Of a stretch of DNA of 64,000 nucleotides, positions 15,392-64,000 are shown piece by piece. This DNA is from Shigella phage vB_SflM_004. The DNA lies in the sequence record MK295205; one strand, given 5' to 3'. A program made the position numbers and the translations under genes. How positions within the stretch are numbered: position 1 is the stretch's first letter; every line of letters starts with the position of its first letter. The notes beneath the pieces were generated by a model. It was given only the letters and a program-made list of their open reading frames with translations, did no database searches and was not told the origin of the DNA.

Positions 15392-15887
15392 TCATACACG
15401 GCTCCTGATTTGTGAACTCTCTGTGAAGTTCTTCTCTTTTCTTTCTAATTGCTTCTTTGGCATCATCAACGTTATCAAACAGACCAAGGAAATGTGTTAC
15501 ACCGTGAACCATAATCCTTGCTCTCCACTTCTGTGAAGCTTTGTTGAATGATACACCTTTTACACCAGATGTATTGTTGGAGTGTATTTTTCTATTCCAA
15601 CAATTTTCAGCTTGAGTGCAAACTCTCAAGTTCATTCTTCGGTTGTCATCAGTAATTCCGTTACGATGGTCTACACGGTCTGGTAAGAACCCCTCTGTGT
15701 AAAGAATGGCTAAATCATGAGCCATGTATGATTTTCTCTTTATGGTAATCCTGATATAACCCCTTTTATGGGGTGTTCCAGCAACTGAACCAATGACTGT
15801 CCTATTAGCCGATTTCTTCAACCAAGTAAAGACCCCTGTTTCGGGGTCATAATGAAGATACTCTTTAAGTGTCTGCTGAGTCAACAT
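15381..15887 (-). CDS. HNH homing endonuclease with AP2 domain (second copy)
   Basis: MAHDLAILYTEGFLPDRVDHRNGITDDNRRMNLRV (HNH) plus TSGVKGVSFNKASQKWRARI (AP2-like); paralogous to 2467-2958. Confidence 0.7.
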   Translation of the reverse strand: MLTQQTLKEYLHYDPETGVFTWLKKSANRTVIGSVAGTPHKRGYIRITIKRKSYMAHDLAILYTEGFLPDRVDHRNGITDDNRRMNLRVCTQAENCWNRKIHSNNTSGVKGVSFNKASQKWRARIMVHGVTHFLGLFDNVDDAKEAIRKKREELHREFTNQEPCMNED

Positions 15888-16911
15888 TTGGAGTCCAATT
15901 ATATTTCTTAAAAGAGAAATTATCTTTTGGATTTCTCTCTTGATATGCTATCCAGAAATGCTGTTCCATTAGTTCTAATGGTGTCTTTGTGACAGTCTGT
16001 CCATCCCATGACACATAGGTGTAAGACTCTTTTTTAGCATAGAGTTCATAGATAGCGTCAAGACACTCTTTATAGGTCTCTTTACCATCTAAAGCATTCA
16101 TCACAGCTACTTTGCCAGCACCTTTAAGGCCGAAGTAGTTGTCTGCATTATCTCCAGCAACAGCCTGATAACACAAAAATTTAAAACCTACACCAACAGT
16201 TTTTGCAGCTTTTGGTTTTGATTTGATAGGACAATCCCAGATATCACCAACATTATTATCAGCAATAAAAATTAGTGGTGACTTTTCATAAGTCATATCA
16301 ATACAATAAGTCCCTTCAGCTTGTCGAAGGTCTTTGTCAATACTCATAAGAGCAGCCTTCTTACCCATCTTTTCAGCTTTAGCAATTACGATGGAATCGG
16401 CTTCGAAGCCTCCCTTTAAGAGCTTGAACTCTGGTCTTGATAGAAGATATTCACGACAAGCAACTAAGTGTGTTGGTGTGACAGCCTCTTTACGGTTACC
16501 TTGATATTGGTGCTCAAGACCTTTAATGTCTTTATGTTTATGTACACCCTTCTCTGTTAAATAACCTACCCAAGTTCTTTCTTTACCAACAACCTTAAGC
16601 CATTCCTGAAGAACCTGCTGAGTAGCCATGATAGCTTCTTTTTCACTCTTAGCTTCTTTCCAAGTCTGTCTTTCCCATTCATCTTCATCAAATGTCAGGC
16701 CAAGTTCTTCCACAAGGATTCTCTGGTCTGCTAACCATCTTGCAGCATCTTTTGCATTATCAAATGGTTCAGATTCTTCTGCTGTGAGTTTATTGACATA
16801 TTTATATTTTGCTTTCTCAACTACACAAGCACCTTTATAGGCAATACTGTCAGAGTCAATAAAGACATGTGTAACTGAATCGGGAAGTTTTTTTAATGTG
16901 TACTTCTCCAT
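15865..16911 (-). CDS. 5'-3' exonuclease (T7 gp6-like, FEN family)
   Basis: colinear similarity to T7 gene 6 protein: FIDSDSIAYKGA, YQGNRK, SIDKDLRQ, AGDNADNYFGLKGAGK. Confidence 0.6.
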   Translation of the reverse strand: MEKYTLKKLPDSVTHVFIDSDSIAYKGACVVEKAKYKYVNKLTAEESEPFDNAKDAARWLADQRILVEELGLTFDEDEWERQTWKEAKSEKEAIMATQQVLQEWLKVVGKERTWVGYLTEKGVHKHKDIKGLEHQYQGNRKEAVTPTHLVACREYLLSRPEFKLLKGGFEADSIVIAKAEKMGKKAALMSIDKDLRQAEGTYCIDMTYEKSPLIFIADNNVGDIWDCPIKSKPKAAKTVGVGFKFLCYQAVAGDNADNYFGLKGAGKVAVMNALDGKETYKECLDAIYELYAKKESYTYVSWDGQTVTKTPLELMEQHFWIAYQERNPKDNFSFKKYNWTPNVDSADT

Positions 16912-25568: not shown

Positions 25569-25751
25569 TTGAAGTTCAACTGCAATGTGCTGGATATTCT
25601 CAAAGTGAGATTGAGGCTATGTGCATCATCATTTGCAGTAGCCATAAGCACCTCAAGCTTTCCAGAAATTCGTCTTAAGGTTGATATTTTTATTGCTGGA
25701 GGTAAGATTATCAAGGATAAGACAGGCTACCTTAAAGGTGAACGTCTATGA
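25569..25751 (+). CDS. hypothetical small protein
   Basis: 60-aa ORF (TTG start in track), stop overlaps next ATG (ATGA); C-terminal KIIKDKTGYLKGERL recurs in diverged copies at 40650 and 45830. Confidence 0.35.
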   Translation: MKFNCNVLDILKVRLRLCASSFAVAISTSSFPEIRLKVDIFIAGGKIIKDKTGYLKGERL

Positions 25752-25957
25752 GCCATCGTGGAAGAACTCATCTTGCCATGATGCAAGGTGCTTCAAAAGA
25801 GACTATCAAGAATCGGAAGAAAACTCTTTTTGACAGAATGAATAGACTCATTGATAATGCAAGCCTACCTAACTCTGAAAAGGTTTTCTTGAAAGGGAAT
25901 CTGAAGAGTATTGCACAGGAACTTATTGACATTGAATTTTGGAGACACCAAAAATGA
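25748..25957 (+). CDS. hypothetical small protein
   Basis: 69 aa; diverged copies of its 5' end with its RBS occur at 36520 and 40265. Confidence 0.45.
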   Translation: MSHRGRTHLAMMQGASKETIKNRKKTLFDRMNRLIDNASLPNSEKVFLKGNLKSIAQELIDIEFWRHQK

Positions 25958-35000: not shown

Positions 35001-35957
35001 TTAAGCAGTTTTTACCCAAGCCATTAATTTAATAAAGGCGTTAGTAACATCAAATGCTGCACCAGAACCTGTACCACCAGTTGTACCACTTAATGTGTGG
35101 GCATGAGCACCAATTGTCACAGTGTGTGTATGGTCACCTACCCAACTTGTTCTCCCTGTCCAAGTTCTTGATGCGTAGAAGTTAACTGGTGTACCATAAG
35201 TGAACTGTGAACCAGTATAACCTCTAGAGGCTTGCGATGACATCTTACTACCACCTGCACCAGTCCCGTTCCATCTTACTGTGAAGCTGCTATTTGCAAC
35301 ATTATGGGCGTGACCACCCGCACCAGAGATTTCCATGTTACCTCTGTCATGGTCGTGAGCACCTTGAGCGTCTGTGTACTTAGTACCATAATCAAAGGTA
35401 GTGGTTGTTCCAGAGAAGCTGTGAGTATGACTTGGAAGATGACCTACAGCAATACTCTTAGAGTCTGAGCCACCTACAGAACCAACATCCTCACCAGTTG
35501 AAGAGGCAATTCTAATAGTTCTGAACTGACCATTTGATAGGTAAGCCCAAGTAGTTCCTGCAAATGCTGTATTAGGGTTTACATTCGATGCAAAGAACGT
35601 TACCATACCAACTGGATAGATTTTGTTAAGGTCTGTTGAGTTAGAAATAGCTGTTGCAATCTTCTGGTCAGTCTCTGCTTTAGTGTAAGCTCCAACATCT
35701 CCAGCAGAAGGTTTCTGTGCTTCCGTGAAAGTGTTGTAATCAATTACCACATAACCATCAACCGCATTAGCTGGCTTAGTAGATGACACAGTAGGAGCAG
35801 AATGGACAGTAATAACTGCACCATTGTTGTAGTTAAATTTAAACTGTGCAGTCGGTGTAGATGTACAAACTCCACGCATCATAGTTATCTCCACCAACTG
35901 AAACAGTACATACATCAACACCAACACCACTATCTGTACTTCTGTAAAGAACAGCAT
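35001..35957 (-). CDS. tail fibre protein, C-terminal His-rich domain
   Basis: repeated HxH motifs (HTHSFSG, HDHDRG, HAHNV, GDHTHTVTIGAHAHTLSG) as in long/short tail-fibre tips; N-terminal part of track ORF looks like out-of-frame read-in. Confidence 0.6.
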   Translation of the reverse strand: MLFFTEVQIVVLVLMYVLFQLVEITMMRGVCTSTPTAQFKFNYNNGAVITVHSAPTVSSTKPANAVDGYVVIDYNTFTEAQKPSAGDVGAYTKAETDQKIATAISNSTDLNKIYPVGMVTFFASNVNPNTAFAGTTWAYLSNGQFRTIRIASSTGEDVGSVGGSDSKSIAVGHLPSHTHSFSGTTTTFDYGTKYTDAQGAHDHDRGNMEISGAGGHAHNVANSSFTVRWNGTGAGGSKMSSQASRGYTGSQFTYGTPVNFYASRTWTGRTSWVGDHTHTVTIGAHAHTLSGTTGGTGSGAAFDVTNAFIKLMAWVKTA

Positions 35958-37553
35958 TTAGACCCGATGGGTTTGCATTTCCACTTCTCAATACTAGTTC
36001 ATTTTTGCAAAACTAAGTTGAACCAACGTTGAAACCTGTACCACCATAGAGTCTTAAAGTTGCTGTTGATGGTGTTTGTGGCATTGTTACAGTAGCAATT
36101 TTCACCCAACCACTGTCATAAGTTGTTGCATTCATAGCAGTAGCTCTTGAGAATACAGTATTAGCAACACTTTGTGTGTAGTACCTTGCATCAAAGTTAG
36201 ATACATCTGTAGGGATAACTTGACCTTCAACTCTTAAAGGTTTATTGAGATAAGCTACATCCCTTAACTCTAGATATGTATTCACTGACAAGGTGCTCAG
36301 GGAAGAGTACCTTAGTCTGCTACCTTCACCGTTACCAACATACCAACGTCGCATCAGTACTATCTTTTGCAATAACCCCGTTGCTATTCATTGGCTGGGT
36401 AGCTGTCCCACTTTGCAATGTGAAAGCAGCATCTGTAGTAACAATAGTTTGAGCACCTGTGAAAGTGTTTGCAGAGTTATTTCTTGCAAGACTACTTAAT
36501 AAAGAGCTTACAATATCTTATATAGGAGGACTTATGAGCCACCGTGGAAGAACCCATGCAGCGATGATGAAAGGTGCTTCAAAGGAGACACCAGATGAGT
36601 AGAGTCTCATAGTTGCACCTGTCATCTGGTTAAACAAGTTAACATCCTGCTTAGTCCCATCAGGTTGACCAAGATACCAAGACTCTGAACCAGAACCTGC
36701 GTAGGCTTGAACAAATACTGCACCGTTTGCTGTAGCTGGTTTCAATCTAAGCAAAGACCCATCAGAAATAATTGTCTGATAGTTTGTGAAGTTGTTTGCA
36801 CCTGAGAAGGTATTATTTTCAGTTAGTCTTGCAAATCTTTGGTCAGCAGCTATCAAAAATCGTAAGCAGAAGTTGTTTGAGAGAATGAACAGGTTAATTG
36901 ACAATTCATCTCTTTCAGGTTCTGAGAAGGTTTTTAACTAGGGAACCGGTCTTGTTGTTGTAGAAAATAACATCGTCACTTCCGAATCATTACCTACATA
37001 CCACCTATTAGCTCCAGTACTATCCTGGCTACAATAGCGGAGTATGCCTCACTTGCACCAGCAGGGGTCTTCAGTGTCATAGCTTCACCATTTGCTTGAA
37101 TAACTTGTTGGGAGGTAAAGATGTTATTTGCAGCTAGTCTTGAGTATCTTGCATCATTTTCCTCATTTGTTCTCATACCTAATTCATTAGGAGATGGTTT
37201 ATTAAGTGTGTGATAAACTGTTGCAGACCTTGAAGCATCTGCAATAGTTAGTCTAAGACCGTTTGAGTTAATTTTAAATCTTGAAAGGTAATCTGAAAAG
37301 CATTGCACAAGAACTTGTAGAATAAATCTTTTCCACCGTAAGTTAACTTAACAATACCCAGATTACCTGTCATATTCCCGCCAGCTAATTGCAAGAATCT
37401 TTCAAGTCTGAATGAAGCTAAGAAATTTGCATAGGTCATTTTACGGTCTTCATCACCTAGCATATCAGACCTTTTAATTACTCTCAAATGTAATAGGTCG
37501 TCTGAGCGAACTGTATCAATTGTGTTTAGTTCACTTAGTTTGTATTCAGCCAT
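35958..37553 (-). pseudogene. tail fibre gene N-terminal and central portions, fragmented
   Basis: N-terminus MAEYKLSELNTIDTV...LAGGNMTGNLGIVKL at 37553, then pieces in different frames (36994-37308, 36518-36904, 36013-36372) interleaved with three foreign fragments at about 36520-36595, 36840-36935, 37275-37315. Confidence 0.5.
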
Positions 37554-37598: not shown

Positions 37599-38788
37599 TT
37601 AAGCAACTCTCTTCCACACATAAACAACATAAGATGGTTGTTCAACACTGAAAGCTTGTCCACCACCAGATGCACCAGTTGTACCTGAGTGAGTGTGCTC
37701 AGAAGATTGAACTGTCACAGTACCACTGTGTGTATGTGAACCAATACCGACTGTGTGGCTGTGAGCACCAATACCGACTGTGTGGCTGTGGTCACCGGAT
37801 GCACCAGATGTAACATCTCCAATCGTCACAACGTGAGAGTGGTCACCTGCCCCATAAGTTGGTTGTGACGCATTACCAACACCTGCATCAGCCGTTGCCG
37901 TAATAGCATTCACACCACGTCCACCAACGTTCTGTACAAGAGCTTGGTGAGTGTGATTGCCAGAGTTGTTTGTATTCCTTGAACCATAGTCAAAAGTACT
38001 GGTATACTTAGTTCCATAGTCAAAGTCACTTGTAGATTTTGTACCATAATCAAACACACTCGTTGTCTTATTTCCGTGGTCGAAACTTGAAGCTGACGCA
38101 CTATTACCATGCGTGTGTCCACCACCAGTTAACAATACAGAGTGTGTGTGACTTGGAATGTTATTTTGAGAAAGTGCTACAGATGCACTACCAAAATTAG
38201 TTTCAACTGGTCTTGTGTCAGAATCATAACCAACTAATGCTCTACCTTTAGAGACAAGTTCCCAAGTACCACCACAAAGTAAATATGTAGATGGGTTTGC
38301 AGGGTTAACTGACAAATGGATAGTACCAATTGGGTAACTATTCTGGATAGCTCTATAAAGAGCATTCACAGCTTTTGCAGTAGCATACTTATCAGCATCT
38401 TCAGAGTAAGAGTTTGAATAAGTCCAGTATTGAATATTGGAGACATCTACCTGAATCTTGTTAGTATTGTGAGGGTTGTTCTTATCATTGATGTGGTTCT
38501 GAATAAGAGTATTAACTTCATCACTTGATAGAATATTAAGGTTCTGCCTAGCCTCTTCAACACTAACCACGTCTGACAAGTTATTAGCAGCCATTAATTG
38601 GAGTGCGTTAACAACATTACCAAGTTCTACGTGAACCTTTGTAACGCCGTGTGGGTTATTTCTTAAAGATGCGTGTGGAGCAAGTAATTGCTCAAGTGTG
38701 CAACGCTTATCCTCAAAAAAATGACACTTGTGTCAATAGGTAAAGAGGCTTGAGGCAATGCACTAATTTGAATTTCACCAACTGCCAT
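37599..38788 (-). CDS. tail fibre protein (frameshift at A7 tract)
   Basis: N-terminus from ATG at 38788 (MAVGEIQISALPQASLPIDTSVIF) continues in +1 frame after plus-strand A7 run at 38715-38721 into ...NNLSDVVSVEEARQNLN... and His-rich C-terminus; track reports only 37599-38594. Confidence 0.6.
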
Positions 38789-38790
38789 TA

Positions 38791-39189
38791 TTAGCTCCCT
38801 TTATATTCGTATGTGTAAAGGTTAGTCGTGCTAGTGGGTGCAGTTCCTGTTACTGTGTCAATTAATTCCCAACCATTGGAAACTAAATCAGGTTGCTCCG
38901 TAGCAAATGAACGAACCTCTCCAACCGTACCATTTACTTTGTTAAGCAAATAGTTAATAATATAGTTAAACCACTGGCGACCCATAGGCTCTCCCCTTAA
39001 TAGGCCAGTGGCTTGAATTTCTGGAGGTGGTAATACTTTAAGCTGGTTACTCCCTTCTTGTTGTGATTTATCTTTTCTACCTTTGACGATTTGAGCAACT
39101 TCTGCCATAATACCATAATCGCCACCAGTTACCATTTCTTTACCAGCAATAAAATAGTCACTGCTATTGTTTGTCTTGCTGACTTTCAT
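38791..39189 (-). CDS. hypothetical structural protein
   Basis: 132-aa ORF directly upstream of tail fibre gene. Confidence 0.4.
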
Positions 39190-40174: not shown

Positions 40175-40244
40175 GTGTTGTAACAGAGTCGTAATGGTAT
40201 CTGAGCTTGTAGGATGGTAAGAGTACTAAGTTGACAAGGTGCCC

Positions 40245-40750
40245 TTATACAATATCTTATATAGGAGGGCTTATGAGCCACCGTGGAAGAACCCATGCAG
40301 CGATGATGAAAGGTGCTTCAAAGGAGACTATCAAGAATCGTAAGCAGAAGTATTTCAAATGTGGTGTCATCTGTTGTTACTTTATTCTTTTGAGATGTTT
40401 GAGAGAATGAACAGGCTAATTGACAATTCATCTCTTTCAGGTTCTGAGAAGGTTTTCTTGAAAGGTAATCTGAAAAGCATTGCACAAGAACTTATTGACA
40501 TTGAGTATTGGAGACATCAAAAATGACACTTGCAGACGTTATTCAGCTCCAGAGTTAATTCAGGAATGTCCATTGTAGTCATGCCTAGCAAGTTCGTAAA
40601 AACCTTTAACAACGACGCTTTAAGGTCTACACACATCCTTATCGTGATTGCAAAAGACCGTACTGGAGTACTCAAAGGTGAACGTATTGATATTCTGGAG
40701 TCTGGGGAAGTGTTGGTAAAGGTTTTGACTGGACACTTCTTCGTGATTCC
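40245..40750. repeat. degraded mosaic copy of the small-gene cassette at 25700-26260
   Basis: colinear ~85 percent identical segments including the RBS and start of the 25748 gene, the SEKVFLKGNLKSIAQELIDIE segment, VVMPSKFVK segment and KDRTGVLKGERI segment, with internal indels. Confidence 0.7.
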
Positions 40751-42669: not shown

Positions 42670-42953
42670 TTTTTAATACCTTTCTTAGTAGAAATTTTAT
42701 AAGCAAGGTTATCTCGTAAATCCCCAGTTTCTACAAGAGGTGCGTTGAAACCTTTTTGTTTAATTGTAGAAGGAGCGTTAGGAGGGAGGATAGCAGTATT
42801 ACCAAAGCCTCTCTTAATTGCCTTTTGAGCATTCTTTGCAAATGCCTCTAAAGTTTCTGAGGGGTCTGTATTAAGACTATTTAGTTGCTTATAGAGATTC
42901 TTCTTAGTCTGCTCTAACAAGGTCTGTCTGTGTAACATCATAGTAATTAGCAA
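42666..42953 (-). CDS. hypothetical structural protein
   Basis: 95-aa ORF. Confidence 0.4.
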   Translation of the reverse strand: MLITMMLHRQTLLEQTKKNLYKQLNSLNTDPSETLEAFAKNAQKAIKRGFGNTAILPPNAPSTIKQKGFNAPLVETGDLRDNLAYKISTKKGIKK

Positions 42954-42971
42954 GGATTACGACGACGCATG

Positions 42972-43283
42972 TCAATCACACACTGCATAAGGGAGGCCAC
43001 TAACAGAGCTTTTAACTAGGTCGTCATATACAGCTTTAAGAGATTTGAATCTGGAAGAGTTACGTAAGTAAACACCACCAACCTTCTCATCTCCCATCTT
43101 GGCTACTTGAAAGAGTAAATATTTAAGAGCTTTGATGGCTGCTTTCTTTTCATCCTTTCCAGATTCTTGGTAGAACCACTCTAGCACCGATTGGTCAATG
43201 AGGATTTCACTGTTATTGAGTGAGGTGCTCAAGATGGAAGTCCTAGTAAAAGGGTTATTAGCGGGGTCGCCTGTATAACACAT
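42972..43283 (-). CDS. hypothetical structural protein
   Basis: 103-aa ORF downstream of capsid gene. Confidence 0.4.
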   Translation of the reverse strand: MCYTGDPANNPFTRTSILSTSLNNSEILIDQSVLEWFYQESGKDEKKAAIKALKYLLFQVAKMGDEKVGGVYLRNSSRFKSLKAVYDDLVKSSVSGLPYAVCD

Positions 43284-43304
43284 TATAACCCTCCTTTCAA
43301 GTTA

Positions 43305-44447
43305 TTACTCAGCGTCTGAACGAACGTCAACAAGCAGTTGAGGACGTGTGCAGTATGGCAGCATGTAAGAGTGAGCTTCGAAGTCAATACCTTCGTCACG
43401 GTCTTTCTCATATTCGAACACATACAGTTCCTGACCCAGAGTGTTTGCATAACCCATCTTAGGACATGGAGCTATATCTACTGTTATGATGTTGTTCACT
43501 CCACTCAACATTGCTACGTTAGGGAATGCGTGACCTACACCTACAGTTGAAGCATCAACACCATCGATGCTAACCAGAGTATGAGTCTTACCACGCTTAT
43601 CTTTGAACTTACCGTTGTACTGTACGAATACACAACCGTAGTAGAAACGGTTCATGTGAGCCTGAACACCGTCAGTTCCACCAGTTCTCAGAGAACCAGT
43701 AATCTGTTGCCAAGCAAGCGGAGTCTGCTGTGCAAGGTATGCGTCACGAATCTTAGGATGCTTGATAAGCTTGCTGAAGAAAGTTCTGTCAACAACGATG
43801 TGAATTTCTTCACCGTTGATTACAGTACCTCAACGTAATCCAATAGTTCCACGAGAAGGTTCGATATCAGAGTTCGGGTTGTCCAAGTCGAAGTAGATAG
43901 TCTTCTTAGTTACGTCGAACTGCTTGTACAGGTCTGCGTACAGAACACCGTTAGCATCGATAACTTTACCCTTCAGAGCTTGCATGAACAGGAACTCACG
44001 AGTAATATCGGAGTTGGTTCGAATCGTCATCAGCTTCTTAGCACGTACAACTGCTTCAGTAGTCAGTTCATTTGCAGTGCCTGGCTGACGAACACCCTGA
44101 ATCTCATCAGGAGTGATGCTTTCAACTTCCTTGAAGTACATCATTGGGAAGCTAATCTGACGAACACGCTCAGGAGCGCTAGTCTCAGCTTTACGGCTAG
44201 TACGGTCTAGATAAGACAGTTGCAGGTCTGCGTAGAAGTTAACGATACATACAGAGTCTGCCTGAGCTTCTTCACCTGCTGCGACCTTAGTACCATCAGC
44301 TTTCAGGGTTGGACTTACACTGTATTCTGTGCTGGCTACTGGAGCGTACTCTTTACGAGAGTGACCAGTTGGGGTGATTTCTTCCCAAAGGAAAGCATCA
44401 TTCATAAGTTCTCTGTTACCTAAATGTGTAAAACCTTGATATGCCAT
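43305..44447 (-). CDS. major capsid protein (lambda gpE-like) with in-frame TGA
   Basis: track ORFs 43830-44447 and 43305-43655 are in the same frame, separated only by TGA at 43830-43832 and 58 stop-free codons; combined ~380 aa with E-like C-terminal pattern. Confidence 0.55.
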
Positions 44448-44459
44448 TATTTGTGTTCC

Positions 44460-45407
44460 TTATTTCTTGATAAGAGTATTCAAAGCATTCTGGAGAGCCA
44501 GTTTGCGTTGGTCAGCGTTAGCATTAGCACTTGCTTCTGGAGCGGTATCTTTACCGTCATCCACTTCTGCTTCGCCGTTATTGCCAAGTTCTTCCATAGC
44601 GTTTGAGTGTTCCAGAACAGCACCAGCCGCTTCTTTCAGCTTAGTGATTTCAGAATCCTTCTCAGACATGGCAGAAGCATGGGACGCGATAGTTTCATTA
44701 AGTTTCTGGTTAGCACCTTCCATAACATTCATAAACAGAACACTCAGAGGGTTATCAAGACCAGCACCTAAAATAGCTGTTGCAGCTTCTTTTGCGTCAA
44801 ATCCAAAAGCTTCAGCAGATGCAGAAATCTTACCAGTTAAATCTGTAAGTGCTGCTTCCTGTTCCTTAGCTTTCATTTGAGCAACCTGAAGACGCAGAGC
44901 TTCTAGTTCTTGCTTTTCTTGTTCAGTCATTTCTTCACCTGAATTGTTTGTGTTTAAACTTACAGGAGCTTCTTCAGAACCTTGTAAGTAATTTAAGAAA
45001 TCATCTTGAGACATGATAGAATTAATTAAACCAAGTTCAAGAGCTTCCTGAGCAGAATAAACATTTGCCTCAGTATTCTTTACAGCTTCTTCAGAGATAT
45101 TACGTGAGTCTGCAACAAAACTAGTAAAAGTTTCGTAGGTGTCATCAATTCTCTTTTGAAGTCTATTCTTGCTTTCTTCTGATATTGCTGGTGATGGAGA
45201 ACCCATACCTTTAAATTCACCAGCCTTAATAACGTTAATTGTAACGCCATTCTTTTCAAGTGATTGACGTAGAGATTGGTGGACCATAATTACACCGATT
45301 GAACCAACATCTGCATCTGGTGATGCAATAATTTCTTCAGCAGAAGATGCAAGAGCATATGCAGCAGAGCAAGCAAACTCATCTACATAAGCAATAATTT
45401 TCTTTTT
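44460..45407 (-). CDS. prohead protease (S49/SppA-like) fused to scaffold-like domain, 5'-truncated
   Basis: protease-like sequence KKIIAYVDEFACSAAYALASSAEEIIASPDADVGSIGV...NVIKAGEFKGMGSP runs upstream of first ATG (45287) without a start codon and is cut by a stop at about 45480; C-terminal half is Ala/Glu/Lys-rich coiled coil. Confidence 0.55.
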   Translation of the reverse strand, partial: KKKIIAYVDEFACSAAYALASSAEEIIASPDADVGSIGVIMVHQSLRQSLEKNGVTINVIKAGEFKGMGSPSPAISEESKNRLQKRIDDTYETFTSFVADSRNISEEAVKNTEANVYSAQEALELGLINSIMSQDDFLNYLQGSEEAPVSLNTNNSGEEMTEQEKQELEALRLQVAQMKAKEQEAALTDLTGKISASAEAFGFDAKEAATAILGAGLDNPLSVLFMNVMEGANQKLNETIASHASAMSEKDSEITKLKEAAGAVLEHSNAMEELGNNGEAEVDDGKDTAPEASANANADQRKLALQNALNTLIKK

Positions 45408-45418
45408 GCTAAGAGAAA

Positions 45419-45610
45419 ATGAACAAAGAAGATAAGCATAAAAATGCTGTACGAACTCCTGATGGAAAGGTTCAATCCTTCATCCTGACAGTTGGTGGAA
45501 AACCGTTTCGTTGCCACTGCGGAGCAAACTGTTTTCATAAACCAGATAAAAATGATTTAGAGCTTTACGCATGTAATGCTTGCAATACTTGGTATCACTC
45601 AGAGGAATAA
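45419..45610 (+). CDS. hypothetical Cys-rich small protein
   Basis: 63 aa, CHCGANCF...CNACNTW; its 3' part recurs at 49420-49470. Confidence 0.35.
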   Translation: MNKEDKHKNAVRTPDGKVQSFILTVGGKPFRCHCGANCFHKPDKNDLELYACNACNTWYHSEE

Positions 45611-45885
45611 AATGACAATACTGTACAAACAAAATAAAGATGGCTCTTTTAACATCTGGTCATGTACTGCTGTAGGTGACAAGGTTATTACAACCTCGGT
45701 AAAGAAAATGGCAAGATGAAGAGTATACAGCAGAACCTAAAAACATCGGTAAAAAGAATGAGCGTAACGCTGAACAGCAAGCTCTCTTTGAAGTTGCTGC
45801 TAAGTATAAAAAGCAGGTTGACCGCTAAGATTGCAAAAGACCGTACTGGAGTACTCAAAGGTGAACGTATTGATATTCTGGAGTT
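45540..45885. repeat. chain of short fragments copied in order from loci at 49420-51960 and 40640
   Basis: exact or near-exact 23-50-nt matches to 49420-49470, 49725-49750, 50105-50135, 51185-51235, 51428-51455, 51925-51958, 40640-40695, in the same order. Confidence 0.7.
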
Positions 45886-45888
45886 GCT

Positions 45889-46158
45889 ATGAAGAAAATG
45901 TACAGTCTCTGGGGAAGTATTATGTGGAAAGCAGTAATTGCGCTTGGTGTTGTTTTTCTATCTGGCTGCAACCCTTCTTATGAAGATAAAAATGCTTCTT
46001 ACAGTCTCCCACCAGAGATGCAAGATTGCAGAGTATACAAGTTACATGGTGATGCTATAAGCAGAGATATTGTTGTTGTCAGATGTCCAAACTCCCAAAC
46101 AACAACATCTTATAGCTATGGCAAAAATGGTCAATCACACACTACGGTTATTGAGTGA
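45889..46158 (+). CDS. putative lipoprotein
   Basis: signal peptide with lipobox VFLSGC; 89 aa; degraded paralog at 26590-26763. Confidence 0.5.
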   Translation: MKKMYSLWGSIMWKAVIALGVVFLSGCNPSYEDKNASYSLPPEMQDCRVYKLHGDAISRDIVVVRCPNSQTTTSYSYGKNGQSHTTVIE

Positions 46159-46699
46159 GGTTTTTTCTATCAAGAACTCGATACTGCTTCTCTGAAAGAT
46201 TTGCAAACTTACAGAAACGACGAACAAAACGCATGTGTCGTGATTTTACTCGTGGTAACCATTTTGCTGCCAGAGCAGACGTGTTAGGGTCTAACAGTGC
46301 AGCTTCTAAATGCTTGAAAGCATCTGTTTCGTAACGTGTACCAACAAAGATTTTGAAGTCGTCGTAACGACCTAAGTCAGAAATCTTATCCATGATACGC
46401 AATACTTGGAACTCATCAAGTATACCATCAGAGATTGCCTTGGTAAGAGTATAACGGAACGCTTTGCGCTCTCCCATACCTTCTCGTGCATCTCGCATGT
46501 GTAACAGGATTCGAACTGCTACATCAATGTCTTCTCGCATAGCCTTGTAAAACAAGTTTGGAAGACTCTCTACATTTGACCTGCTTGAACCAGCAGCTTT
46601 GTAGAAATCTACCAGTGCAGACATTGAAGAGGTGTGGTTAACAGCACCGTTTTCAGTTAAACCTGCATGTAGATGCGAGTGTTTAAATAATTCGCTCAT
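46148..46699 (-). CDS. hypothetical protein (possibly N-terminal fragment of a larger gene)
   Basis: 183 aa; GLTENGAV...RILLHMRDAREGMGERKAFR is reminiscent of TROVE/DUF2828-type N-termini (weak, from memory); ORF ends where the lipoprotein block begins. Confidence 0.35.
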   Translation of the reverse strand: MSELFKHSHLHAGLTENGAVNHTSSMSALVDFYKAAGSSRSNVESLPNLFYKAMREDIDVAVRILLHMRDAREGMGERKAFRYTLTKAISDGILDEFQVLRIMDKISDLGRYDDFKIFVGTRYETDAFKHLEAALLDPNTSALAAKWLPRVKSRHMRFVRRFCKFANLSEKQYRVLDRKNLTQ

Positions 46700-59860: not shown

Positions 59861-60397
59861 TTATTTGTAGTAATAATATGTAAACTCATTTATCAGGCTT
59901 CCATCCTCATCATTATACTGCTTATGACTAGCCAGATAACCGCCATTAGCTAGAATTTCATCAATCAACTTTTTAGCGTCATCGTTGGGAATCCTAACAG
60001 GTTTACTAAACGGCTGTAAATAGGTACGACGAACATTTGAGAATTTAAAATCAATGGTTTTTACGTTAAGAACTTGCAACATTTTTTGAATCTCCAGTTT
60101 AGGATTGTTGGGATGTTTCCCGTTGATGAATACTTTACTTTCTTGCGCAGTCTTCAAGTGATTCTGGAAAACACCATAATCATGAGTCCTTTTATTTTCT
60201 AACATGACACCTAATTGTGACTCTTGTAAGGCTATAGCTGCTAAAGGGATTCCCCAACCTTTTCCCATCTGTCCTTCGCCATAGTTATATGCTTTTAACA
60301 TATTTACTTTCTGACTGATTGTAAGTTCTGGACAGTCAGATGCTGTAGCTAAATGTGCTGTAAAGAATAAGCACAAACCTAAAACAAATTTCTTCAT
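59861..60397 (-). CDS. secreted protein with lytic transglycosylase-like motif
   Basis: signal peptide MKKFVLGLCLFFTAHLATA; AIALQES...GVFQ resembles SLT-domain catalytic motif; a copy of the conserved leader lies in frame inside the ORF at about 60083-60130. Confidence 0.45.
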   Translation of the reverse strand: MKKFVLGLCLFFTAHLATASDCPELTISQKVNMLKAYNYGEGQMGKGWGIPLAAIALQESQLGVMLENKRTHDYGVFQNHLKTAQESKVFINGKHPNNPKLEIQKMLQVLNVKTIDFKFSNVRRTYLQPFSKPVRIPNDDAKKLIDEILANGGYLASHKQYNDEDGSLINEFTYYYYK

Positions 60398-60458
60398 TTG
60401 CACTCCTATTTTGTTAAACATGCAGACAATTATACATCATCCTGCACATTTTTCAAAT

Positions 60459-60481
60459 AAAAAAGGCTGCCGAAGCAGCCC
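60459..60481 (-). terminator. rho-independent terminator after rIIB
   Basis: minus-strand hairpin GGGCTGC-TTCG-GCAGCC followed by TTTTTT. Confidence 0.65.
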
Positions 60482-60497
60482 TTTAGGAATTTACTTA

Positions 60498-61619
60498 TTA
60501 TACTTCACGTTTACGCTGAGAAATCAGTTCACCAGCAGTCCCTACAACTACATGAAGTGCTTCTGAACCATCCCACTCTTTGATGACTTCACGGCGACTA
60601 TTCACAATCGCTGCAACTTCATAACGTGAAGCTCGCATTTTCATATCGTTGTAGTCAGTTGGTACTGAAACAACATCACGAGGATGAACACGAACTTTCA
60701 GGATAGTGTCACCAGAGAAGCTAGTTACATAGTCCCAAGCCCCAACATGCAGACCCTGAGAGCATGTTACATGACGGTTATTATCAACCATCCAACGTGG
60801 CATCTCAACAATGTTACCCAAATCGTTTGGAACTTTGCAGGTACGAGAGTCAAACAGTTTATCACTACGAGTTGTGACTTTCTTCCAACCGATGATATAA
60901 CCTTCTTCATCAATTTCAACATCAAGGTGTGATACAAAGCCCCAAAGCTGTTCTACAGAGTCTTTTGATGGGTTTTCCATCAGTTTTTCGAAGAATGCAA
61001 TCAGACGGGTAAAGCCTTCATCACCTTTCTTCATCATGTCCAGAATACGGTCTACCAGAGTTGAACGCATTTGAACAGCACCGTAGTACAGGTTATCACC
61101 TTTAATGGTCACAGCACCCTGAGTAAAGTTCTCAATGGATTTGCGAATATTCATCAGTTCAAAGGCTTTCTTGTACTCACCTGATACAACAGCCATAACA
61201 ATTTCAGTGTAGTTAGGGTGAGTTGATTCAACAATCTCTGACTCTGCACCGAAAGTCATGATAACCGAGTCACCAGTAATCATGTATTCAATCTGACTAT
61301 TATTCTGCATTGCTTCGTGCAGAGCATTTACAGGTTCTGCTTTGACTGCTTCTTTAACAGCTTTTGCAACAGGTTTCTGAGTAGCTACCTTTTTAGTTGC
61401 TTTAGCTTTCTTAGCACCCTTTGCAATATCTTTCAAAGTCTTCGCAGGTTTTGCTTTGGTTTTCCCTGTCAGTAAAGTTGCTTCATGACGCTCTACAGCA
61501 CGACCTACAGAACGAGTTGAAGTATTGTACTTCAGAGCAATTGCAGTTTTGGTAAGTTTACCTTCTTTAACCAGTGCGTAGATTTCTGCGTCGATTTGTG
61601 CTTTAGTCTTAGTAGTCAT
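60498..61619 (-). CDS. rIIB: rIIB-like protein
   Basis: colinear similarity to T4 rIIB as recalled: LVDRILDMMKKGDEGF, PRWMVDNNRHVTCSQGLHV, VRVHPRDVVSVPTDYNDMKMR; Lys/Ala-rich linker after N-terminal domain. Confidence 0.8.
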   Translation of the reverse strand: MTTKTKAQIDAEIYALVKEGKLTKTAIALKYNTSTRSVGRAVERHEATLLTGKTKAKPAKTLKDIAKGAKKAKATKKVATQKPVAKAVKEAVKAEPVNALHEAMQNNSQIEYMITGDSVIMTFGAESEIVESTHPNYTEIVMAVVSGEYKKAFELMNIRKSIENFTQGAVTIKGDNLYYGAVQMRSTLVDRILDMMKKGDEGFTRLIAFFEKLMENPSKDSVEQLWGFVSHLDVEIDEEGYIIGWKKVTTRSDKLFDSRTCKVPNDLGNIVEMPRWMVDNNRHVTCSQGLHVGAWDYVTSFSGDTILKVRVHPRDVVSVPTDYNDMKMRASRYEVAAIVNSRREVIKEWDGSEALHVVVGTAGELISQRKREV

Positions 61620-61662
61620 TTTAATATCTCTCTTTGTTGTTTAAAGTTACTTAGTGGTTCGT

Positions 61663-61691
61663 ATTCTAAGGGGCTTTTCAGCCCCTGTCAA
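61663..61691 (-). promoter_or_regulatory. sigma70-like promoter for rIIB
   Basis: minus strand TTGACA, 17-nt spacer (itself a hairpin GGGGCT-GAAA-AGCCCC), TAGAAT; about 40 nt upstream of rIIB ATG. Confidence 0.55.
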
Positions 61692-61708
61692 ACTCCTTGT
61701 CAAATACT

Positions 61709-64000
61709 TTAATCGTAAATTGTAGTCCCTTCTGGAACACACTTCACATCAAAGCCTAAGAACTTACTCACTTCGATGGGTGACACTTTATTCCAATCTA
61801 AATGAGAAAGCAAGAAGTTTTCTTGTTTTCTTTTTGAAAGGTAGTTTGTCACCTTAATAACCATACGGTCACCAGCTTTCTTAATTTTCTTGTACAGCTT
61901 TGTATCATTGTCAAGGCACTCTTTCAAAGTTTGCAACCGACTAATAGTGTAAGTGTATGCAAACTGTGCAGCAACGTATTGGATTTTACCGAACATTGCC
62001 TCTACAGCCTCTTCATTACCTTCTAGGAAGATAGTTTTGTTTGTATCCCGTGAATAGCAATAACCACGAGAAATCTTCCTATTATTGAATGTAAAGTTTC
62101 TGGCAATAATCCAGCTACTTGTAAGGTCAAGAACACCATTCATGTAGATGCGTGTCATATACCTGTTATGATTAATCCAATGAACATCAGTTAAGCTGTC
62201 GTTCAAGAGCTTCTCATCTACTTCAATCCAGTCTTCTGGTATCTTTTTCCAATTTGCTTTTCGGAAAACATAGACTGTCTTCCCAATAACATTAGCAACT
62301 GACTTAGCTACATCCTCTGGAGATGAGCAAAAACATCTACCATCAACTGTGTCACCTACTGCCTTAATATAAAGCTGAGACTCTTCAATTGTGTCTAAGT
62401 CCTCTGACACCTCTTTGTAGGAGGCTACACCTTCTGCTGGAACAGCTTTCCAGAGTTTTACAACACCTCTTACAGCTTCTTTACGCTGGTAATGGTGTTC
62501 CTTATCAGACATTTTCACAATCTTTAACAAGCTTTTATCAAGTTTGTGCAGATTGATTAAGTCATCTAACTCTTTTTCAGTCGAGAATACAAACACAATA
62601 CCATTGTATCTGTGAAACAGGCTTGACTCACTGGCGTAGTCTCGACATGCACCACGCAGAATCTGATTGCGGCCTACAGTCTTCTCAGTTCCGTTTTTAT
62701 TGCGACGGTCATTAATCACAAACAAAAACTGTTCAATTTGGCTTTTACGCATTGCACCAAAGATATTGAACATGCTCGCCTCTTGAGTGTAGGAAAGTGC
62801 TGTTGCACGAATCTTACTCTCTAAAGAGTTGAACTTAACATAAGCAACTGGATTGTATAGGTAGTCCACTTTAGGAATGTTGTTTCCTTTACTGTCAACC
62901 TTAATATTACCTTTGCCGTCACGTTCATAGATGACTGAGCCGTCTTCTGCGTAGATAATTCCACGACGAATGTTTAACAATTCTTCTTCCAGAGAGTCAA
63001 GCTTAACACCTCCCCACTCTAGCTTTGGACACACAGCATTAAACATCTCTCGTGAGTTCAAACGTAACTCTGCATAAGCCTGTGCAGCATCCATAAGTGT
63101 AGGTTGGCTATTAACTCCCTTAATAACATCCCTTGTAATTGCTTCAGTTATCTTTTTGGTAGCCTCAATGATGACATTTTTTGTCGTGTCATTCATCTGC
63201 AATGCTTCACGAGAAGCTGCAATAGCGACTGAACCAATAGGCATGTAGATGTTTACAAGGTCTACGCTCCTACGGAAAAATTCTGGCAAGATTTTGAAGA
63301 AATCATCACCAAGTAATGCTTCCATGTTAACAGGGTAGGCAATGTTACCCATCACCACATTAAATTCTGTCCTGTTACCACTAGAACGCCAGCTTTGCTT
63401 ATGAATCATGGCATCATAAACACCCTCTTCACGGGCAATGACGTTCATATCTGCTAATACATCGTCGTACACAATATTACTTTCTGGTTTTACAGCAAAG
63501 TATGAGTACACATTCCCAGCTTCTTCAAAGAACTTTGAGATACGGTGGTCAGCAACTGCCACACGTACAGCTAAACCATTAGGTTCTTTTGTTGGGTTAG
63601 TTGTCAGCTTAGTTACTTGAGGAATACCATTCTCAAGATAAACAGAGTACTTATTAACAACACCATCAACATAGCTAGATACTGTGAATGACTGAGCAAT
63701 TGCAAATGGTGACTTTGAGCCGATACCCATTGCACCAATGTAATCATTAGAGTCATTCTTCGTAGAAGCTCCGTAGTTCAGATACAAACTCATAACTTTA
63801 TCATGAGTCAATCCAGTTCCAAAATCACGAACTTCGAAGTAAGGCTCAAAACGAGTAGGTAAATGCACATGGAATGGGATGTTCTCTTTTCCAGCTTCTT
63901 TCTGAGCATCTACTGCGTTACATGACAGTTCACGAATCACTGCTCGCTCTTTAAATGTATATACACCAGAACTCAGAAGGCTGAACATTTCAGGTGTCAT
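61709..64000 (-). CDS. rIIA: rIIA-like protein (N-terminus beyond window edge)
   Basis: GHKL-type ATPase motifs near the N-terminal end (ELSCNAVDA, VRDFGTGL, GAMGIGSKS) as in T4 rIIA; ORF is open to the window boundary. Confidence 0.75.
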   Translation of the reverse strand: MTPEMFSLLSSGVYTFKERAVIRELSCNAVDAQKEAGKENIPFHVHLPTRFEPYFEVRDFGTGLTHDKVMSLYLNYGASTKNDSNDYIGAMGIGSKSPFAIAQSFTVSSYVDGVVNKYSVYLENGIPQVTKLTTNPTKEPNGLAVRVAVADHRISKFFEEAGNVYSYFAVKPESNIVYDDVLADMNVIAREEGVYDAMIHKQSWRSSGNRTEFNVVMGNIAYPVNMEALLGDDFFKILPEFFRRSVDLVNIYMPIGSVAIAASREALQMNDTTKNVIIEATKKITEAITRDVIKGVNSQPTLMDAAQAYAELRLNSREMFNAVCPKLEWGGVKLDSLEEELLNIRRGIIYAEDGSVIYERDGKGNIKVDSKGNNIPKVDYLYNPVAYVKFNSLESKIRATALSYTQEASMFNIFGAMRKSQIEQFLFVINDRRNKNGTEKTVGRNQILRGACRDYASESSLFHRYNGIVFVFSTEKELDDLINLHKLDKSLLKIVKMSDKEHHYQRKEAVRGVVKLWKAVPAEGVASYKEVSEDLDTIEESQLYIKAVGDTVDGRCFCSSPEDVAKSVANVIGKTVYVFRKANWKKIPEDWIEVDEKLLNDSLTDVHWINHNRYMTRIYMNGVLDLTSSWIIARNFTFNNRKISRGYCYSRDTNKTIFLEGNEEAVEAMFGKIQYVAAQFAYTYTISRLQTLKECLDNDTKLYKKIKKAGDRMVIKVTNYLSKRKQENFLLSHLDWNKVSPIEVSKFLGFDVKCVPEGTTIYD

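Follow-up and report, generated by a model that had tools for sequence, protein, structure and literature searches.

The tail fibre gene of Shigella phage vB_SflM_004, as deposited in record MK295205, is broken between two reading frames by the loss of 16 nt. The loss is seen in this record alone, and the sequence around it is pervasively damaged. We consider it very likely that the frame break is part of this unselected damage to the record, that it was most probably born in assembly or consensus building, and that the homopolymer tract at the break has no regulatory role. The split of the fibre gene is not a real biological feature. The DNA analysed here is a window of 64,000 nt from the record, the sequence of a Felix O1-like myovirus (Ounavirinae) whose fibre region is closest to Mooglevirus phages such as Moogle, Henu12 and HP1 (85–90% nucleotide identity).

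The fibre gene and its missing 16 nt

In Table 1 we list the two pieces of the gene, the homopolymer run at their junction and the neighbouring genes.

Table 1. Features at and around the break in the tail fibre gene (window coordinates)
Feature	Position	Strand	Description
N-terminal fragment of the tail fibre gene	38663..38788	-	ATG at 38788; 41 codons and a stop; translation MAVGEIQISALPQASLPIDTSVIFLRISVAHLSNYLLHTHL, then stop
Body of the tail fibre gene	37599..38732	-	Other frame; first ATG at 38594; stop at 37599-37601
A7 (plus strand) / T7 (minus strand) run	38715..38721	.	Junction left by the 16-nt loss
Upstream neighbour, 132-aa chimeric ORF AZV01475.1	38791..39189	-	Baseplate gp59-like C-terminus fused to a gp58-like protein
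Downstream neighbour, long tail fibre gene	35001..37553	-	Orthologue of the 843-aa Moogle gp56; at least five frame-shifted pieces

The two ATGs are 194 nt apart, and the N-terminal and body frames are one base apart. The original prediction placed the N-terminus and the body of the fibre in different frames, and this is borne out by the ORF map and by tblastn: Moogle gp57 matches the window with residues 1–24 at 38788–38717 in frame -1 and with residues 30–402 in frame -3, the latter at 84% identity. In the N-terminal fragment only codons 1–24 are orthologous, and the remainder is out-of-frame read-through. The body had been placed from about 38594. Its first ATG is indeed there and begins an ORF of 331 codons, but the frame is already open from the base that follows a TGA at 38735–38733. 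The frames overlap from 38732 to 38666, and the T7 run (38721–38715) is the sole homopolymer within the overlap. It had also been predicted that one more A in the A7 run would join the frames; inserting a single T on the coding strand does yield a continuous protein of 396 amino acids, whose full-length alignment with Moogle gp57 shows 85% identity. The description of the break as a +1 shift does not stand: to continue from the N-terminal frame into that of the body, a ribosome would have to shift by -1.

Because the two pieces find their homologue in the same orthologous gene, a chance pattern of ORFs can be ruled out. That a single tail fibre gene is split at the A7/T7 run is confirmed by the orthologues described below and by two profile matches, to PHROG 2097 (tail fibre; E = 2.4e-121) and to the Pfam domain PF21939 Gp10_C (T4 gp10/gp12-like; 62 bits against a cut-off of 27). 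The depositors annotated the 331-aa ORF as “tail fiber protein” (AZV01474.1). The orthologues are intact single ORFs, and the window copy is divided between frames -1 and -3. Apart from the split, the gene body is intact across 372 codons and is less damaged than the genes next to it.

We compared the gene with nine orthologues from GenBank (Moogle, Henu12, HP1, Michonne, Sf17, KMM2, pEC-M719-6WT.1, SUSP2 and AYO145A), a set that covers three genera of the Ounavirinae (Mooglevirus, Suspvirus and Felixounavirus) as well as unclassified phages. A single ORF of 382–402 amino acids is found in all nine and also in 7 of 7 contigs from IMG/VR, so the comparison with orthologous fibres shows one gene at this position and not two. 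At the site of the T run every one of these GenBank and IMG/VR sequences carries 16 extra bases, CACYTNAARCARGGTA, and none of them has an A/T7 tract. In the alignments the DNA of the orthologues reads ...AGTGATATYTTY CACYTNAARCARGGTA TTGAGGATAA..., and at the same site the window has ...AGTGTCATTTTT joined directly to TTGAGGATAA.... The protein encoded around the 16 nt in the orthologues, SDIF-HLKQG-IEDKRCTLEQLL, is invariant, and the protein alignment shows the invariant motif SDIFHLKQGIEDKRCTLEQLL to be kept in 9 of 9 orthologues. As all orthologues carry the 16 nt there and none carries a tract, the T7 run marks the scar where 16 nt were lost.

The loss removes five invariant codons (HLKQG) and one additional base. 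It joins ...CATTTTT to TTGAGG... and in doing so creates both the T7 run and the frameshift. The intact allele presumably reads ...ATNTTT, then CACCTNAAGCAAGGTA, then TTGAGGATAAG, which would give the real phage an ORF of approximately 401 amino acids.

IMG/VR was also searched with a degenerate pattern of the site. With a spacing of 9–24 nt allowed (the positive control) the pattern finds seven contigs, each with a spacing of exactly 16 nt; with a spacing of 0–8 nt it finds none. The 26-mer and 35-mer that span the junction have no match in IMG/VR, the JGI metagenomes or the GTDB genomes. When the alignment was checked by eye, no convincing microhomology was seen at the deletion ends. The fibre gene contains seven window-private changes at columns that are invariant among the orthologues, and three of the seven sit 7–14 nt 5′ of the deletion.

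The gene is the tail (collar) fibre gene of Felix O1-like myoviruses, in which it consists of a single ORF. Its orthologues include Moogle gp57 (YP_009145700; 402 amino acids; “tail protein”), Michonne gp060 (“tail collar fiber protein”), Sf17 gp110 and AYO145A gp101 (wV8 gp37-like), and it shares with them its place in the genome, flanked by a small gp58-like gene on one side and the long tail fibre gene on the other. Gp10_C and PHROG 2097 are common to the Ounavirinae orthologues and the window copy; the orthologues are single ORFs with the 16 nt and HLKQG, whereas the window copy is split between frames and lacks both.

Damage and chimerism in the record

The genes on both sides of the fibre gene are lesioned as well. 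Upstream, a 47-nt loss near 39049, seen in the alignment and by tblastn, fuses the C-terminus of Moogle gp59 (query residues 81–285) to gp58 (query residues 15–99); the gp58-like orthologues are 99 amino acids long (cluster members, 99–104 amino acids), compared to the 132 amino acids of AZV01475.1. Downstream, a tblastn search with Moogle gp56 breaks up into nine HSPs in frames -1, -2 and -3.

At 36509–36589, 36871–36934 and 37279–37321, the long tail fibre gene contains patches of Moogle gp38, a small early gene to which it is unrelated. They lie on the plus strand of a minus-strand gene and include the gp38 ribosome-binding site and start (MSHRGRTHAAMMKGASKET...). The patches (repeat families D3, D4 and D7) recur at 40248–40498 with 97–99% identity, and an intact copy of gp38 is present at its normal place, 25748–25954.

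We scored gene integrity across the window by tblastn with 88 Moogle proteins. From 1 to 25.5 kb, none of the 19 mapped Moogle genes is broken and all give single full-length matches; these intact genes include those for nucleotide metabolism, replication and the DNA polymerase. From 25.5 to 57 kb, at least 20 genes have a broken frame or are cut short. Genes split between frames include DHFR, ThyA, endolysin, sheath, virion protein gp69, wedge, both fibres and many small ORFs, and truncated remnants are left of the capsid (85%), sheath (63%), proteases (63–73%) and wedge (40%) genes. The hub is reduced to a trace of merely 8%, and the Moogle spike, tape measure, chaperone, portal and large terminase proteins have no tblastn match in the window. 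ARAGORN predicts no tRNA genes within the window, compared to 21 in Moogle.

Two short fillers take the place of long stretches of the Moogle map. Window positions 40228–40736 (approximately 0.5 kb) replace Moogle 42.7–49.3 kb, which holds the rest of the wedge, the spike, hub, tape measure and chaperones, and positions 45410–46172 (approximately 0.8 kb) replace Moogle 55.6–66.1 kb, which holds head genes, portal, terminase and the 21 tRNAs. Both fillers are built from early-gene fragments (Moogle gp38, gp40 and ligase).

The density of indels separates the two zones: 4–8.5 per kb in the damaged zone, with a bias toward deletions (4–47 nt), against 0.1–1 per kb in the intact zone at similar identity. 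These rates were taken from HSPs of at least 89% identity and gene breakage from protein-guided frames; indel counts from nucleotide alignments at 77–80% identity are too noisy and were left out. Open frames of 100 codons or more make up a fraction of approximately 0.9 of the sequence in the intact zone and of approximately 0.57 in the damaged zone.

Do the substitutions in the damaged zone look like the product of evolution? In the intact zone the differences are mostly at third codon positions, and the DNA polymerase gene there differs from that of Moogle by 301 synonymous and 66 non-synonymous codons. The head and tail genes of the damaged zone show no such preference: the capsid gene differs from Moogle by 17, 16 and 14 changes at the first, second and third codon positions, and its differing codons comprise 2 synonymous and 25 non-synonymous ones. 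With Michonne added to the comparison of the capsid and protease genes (window 42949–45409), the window agrees with Moogle at 44 of 44 sites that are polymorphic between Moogle and Michonne. The natural differences between these two phages in this stretch are distributed 5/9/30 over the codon positions, and the 53 changes private to the window are spread 20/17/16. The private substitutions in the capsid and protease genes amount to approximately 2–6%, the same genes carry several deletions of 4–14 nt, and Moogle is still the closest known relative in the head genes. Since the polymorphic sites are identical to Moogle and the private changes are flat over the codon positions, the head-gene stretch appears to be Moogle-type sequence with random noise rather than an evolved relative. 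Codon-blind private substitutions without a signature of purifying selection, together with the match to Moogle at every polymorphic site, imply error rather than evolution.

We picture the fibre lesion as one of dozens, none of them under selection, in the Mooglevirus-like 25.5–57 kb of a chimeric assembly. The lesions are of several kinds: short deletion-biased indels, losses on the scale of kilobases, misplaced gene patches and codon-blind substitutions.

Along the window, the closest relative changes several times. Positions 1–25 kb are intact and share approximately 96% identity with phages of the genus Felixounavirus (ULIM8, ULIM3), and 25.5–60 kb is Mooglevirus-like and damaged. The segment at 60148–61694 (rIIB) shows 100% identity with the final 1,547 nt of the Moogle record, and the segment at 61695–64000 (rIIA) is 100% identical to nt 1–2306 of AYO145A, the window ending at the first base of the AYO145A record. 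The ends of the window abut on the Moogle map; a near-complete circle of 64 kb was considered and rejected, the MK295205 record being 85,887 bp long. An HNH endonuclease ORF at 15405–15725 is 99% identical to Moogle gp26 at the amino acid level, and its flanks are Felixounavirus-like and just 87–91% identical to Moogle in amino acids. This ORF could reflect the mobility of a homing endonuclease or could be a further sign of template mixing. The NrdA protein of MK295205 is AZV01440.1. An artificial or machine-made origin of the window, which its intact first 25 kb, the noise after them and the stretches 100% identical to two GenBank phages might suggest, was rejected, because an exact look-up of its proteins finds the ORFs in GenBank under vB_SflM_004, a published phage.

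The phage was described in Front Microbiol 2021;12:619323 (PMC7925395). It was sequenced on an Illumina HiSeq at 4,115x and assembled with SOAPdenovo v2.04 at default settings, and the genome was reported to have 0 tRNAs, two rIIA/rIIB pairs, a “deletion” of approximately 10 kb when compared with related phages, and genes similar to those of Felixounavirus, Mooglevirus and Suspvirus (PMC7925395). Portal, terminase and tape measure are missing from the structural genes listed there. Even so, the phage produces plaques and its adsorption is normal, and its virions look like those of any contractile-tailed phage, baseplate included (PMC7925395). The deposited genome cannot be that of a viable phage, because it is so damaged; the phage itself is viable.

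Readings of the frame break

The simplest reading of MK295205 is a mis-assembled consensus, probably built from mixed templates. The fibre lesion is confined to a single record, and essential genes in its vicinity are lesioned in a similar way, from which we infer that the damage dates from assembly or consensus building and not from the phage. The original prediction offered a sequencing error as one of two explanations for a one-base change in the homopolymer. This pointed in the right direction, but a single-base change is unsupported, the loss being one of 16 nt. Against an artefact, codon-blind substitutions are not obviously accounted for by short-read de Bruijn assembly; in addition, the fibre gene is less damaged than its neighbours and its T7 run forms a formally valid -1 slippery heptamer that leads into the correct frame.

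Alternatively, the sequenced population may have carried a genuine 16-nt deletion, that is, a real loss of function; this might have been a defective genome maintained by a co-infecting helper within a mixed Felixounavirus/Mooglevirus stock. Defective genomes can persist when a helper is present. The record does resemble a mixture of two genera, both in its chimerism and in its two rIIA/rIIB pairs (PMC7925395). However, we consider a genuine deletion unlikely: the codon-blind private substitutions and the agreement with Moogle at all polymorphic sites speak for error, early-gene patches inside a fibre gene are hard to obtain biologically, and the junction occurs in no other public sequence among the viral, metagenome and genome collections searched.

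The original prediction proposed slippage at the homopolymer, with a phase-variation switch as its other possible meaning. On this reading, A8 would be the true or “ON” allele, a natural variant with an in-frame deletion of 15 nt, and A7 would represent a phase-variable OFF state or else the miscall of a single base. One extra T does restore a continuous ORF that aligns with the orthologues, and the tract is one of just two A/T7 runs in the window (the other at 16888–16894), where approximately 42 are expected from dinucleotide-preserving shuffles. This strong avoidance of long A/T runs elsewhere in the genome also fits an accidental origin of the run in the fibre gene. We regard an A8 “ON” allele as very unlikely. 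Neither the tract nor a gene shorter by 15 nt occurs in any of the nine GenBank or seven IMG/VR sequences. The A8 allele restores the frame, yet its product still lacks the five invariant residues HLKQG and keeps D22V and I30F at two nearly invariant positions. The adjacent frame-breaking lesions are multi-base deletions outside homopolymers, and a contingency tract would normally be longer than seven A/T. Illumina data (PMC7925395) are not prone to miscalls at homopolymers of this length.

Slippage of one A as the cause of the break is thus not supported, given the loss of 16 nt and the lack of a tract in the nine and seven relatives. The idea of a phase-variation switch fares no better. The tract is short and is not conserved at its site, its “ON” length does not encode the full conserved protein, and it lies within approximately 30 kb that is riddled with comparable frame-breaking lesions. 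We take the A7/T7 tract to have no switching function.

Could a ribosome read through the break? The codons at the T7 run in the N-terminal frame are AUU UUU UUG, and recoding is formally possible because U_UUU_UUG at 38721–38714 fits the pattern X_XXY_YYZ and a -1 slip on it lands exactly in the body frame. It is nevertheless exceedingly improbable that the T7 allele is real and that a full-length fibre is made through -1 frameshifting on this heptamer or transcriptional slippage on T7/A7: the 90 nt downstream of the tract hold no significant stimulatory structure (MFE -15.8 kcal/mol, z = -0.56 against shuffles), the predicted helix begins without a spacer after the heptamer, the slippery site is absent from all orthologues aligned, the product would lack invariant residues, and the surrounding genes are likewise broken without any such sites. 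It is also highly improbable that a real T7 allele gives a fibre without HLKQG at a low level, by -1 frameshifting or polymerase slippage. If it did, the receptor-binding apparatus of a Felix O1-like phage would contain, in the T7 allele, a recoding or phase-variable site of recent origin. A young recoding site of this kind in the fibre gene would follow from a real allele, and the evidence is strongly against it.

With a damaged consensus as the preferred reading, the case is mainly of cautionary value. When the frame of a receptor-binding gene is broken beside a homopolymer, this can mimic a phase-variation switch, and it is the orthologues that reveal the scar of a deletion. Flagging the record would keep the truncated AZV01474.1 (331 amino acids) and the fused AZV01475.1 (132 amino acids) from passing as natural variants. 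MK295205 is unsuitable for comparative or host-range analyses.

Comparison with known systems

Hypermutable polyG tracts are reportedly found in receptor-binding genes of Campylobacter Fletchervirus phages; these are said to be long G runs that are kept across related phages and are heterogeneous in length within populations. The likeness to the present case is that a homopolymer lies in a receptor-binding or tail fibre gene of a phage and that the reading frame depends on the length of the homopolymer. In contrast, the run here is an A7 that is unique to one record and was made by a deletion, and its “ON” length does not give the conserved protein.

The frameshift in tail assembly chaperone genes of the lambda G/GT type is conserved and gives two functional products. 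In Moogle the gp67/68 chaperones are annotated as a joined CDS (programmed -1 frameshift). An X_XXY_YYZ slippery heptamer in a gene of the tail module is what the fibre gene has in common with this system; unlike the chaperone site, the fibre site is not present in relatives and has no stimulatory structure. The resemblance to a polyG contingency tract or to a chaperone frameshift is superficial, the fibre site having neither conservation nor a functional “ON” product.

A further parallel is found in phage deposits that are mis-assembled or chimeric. The codon-blind substitutions and misplaced patches may set the present record apart from these. The likeness lies in private indels, missing essential genes, a duplicated rIIA/rIIB pair, stretches that are 100% identical to two references, and a viable phage represented by a non-viable sequence.
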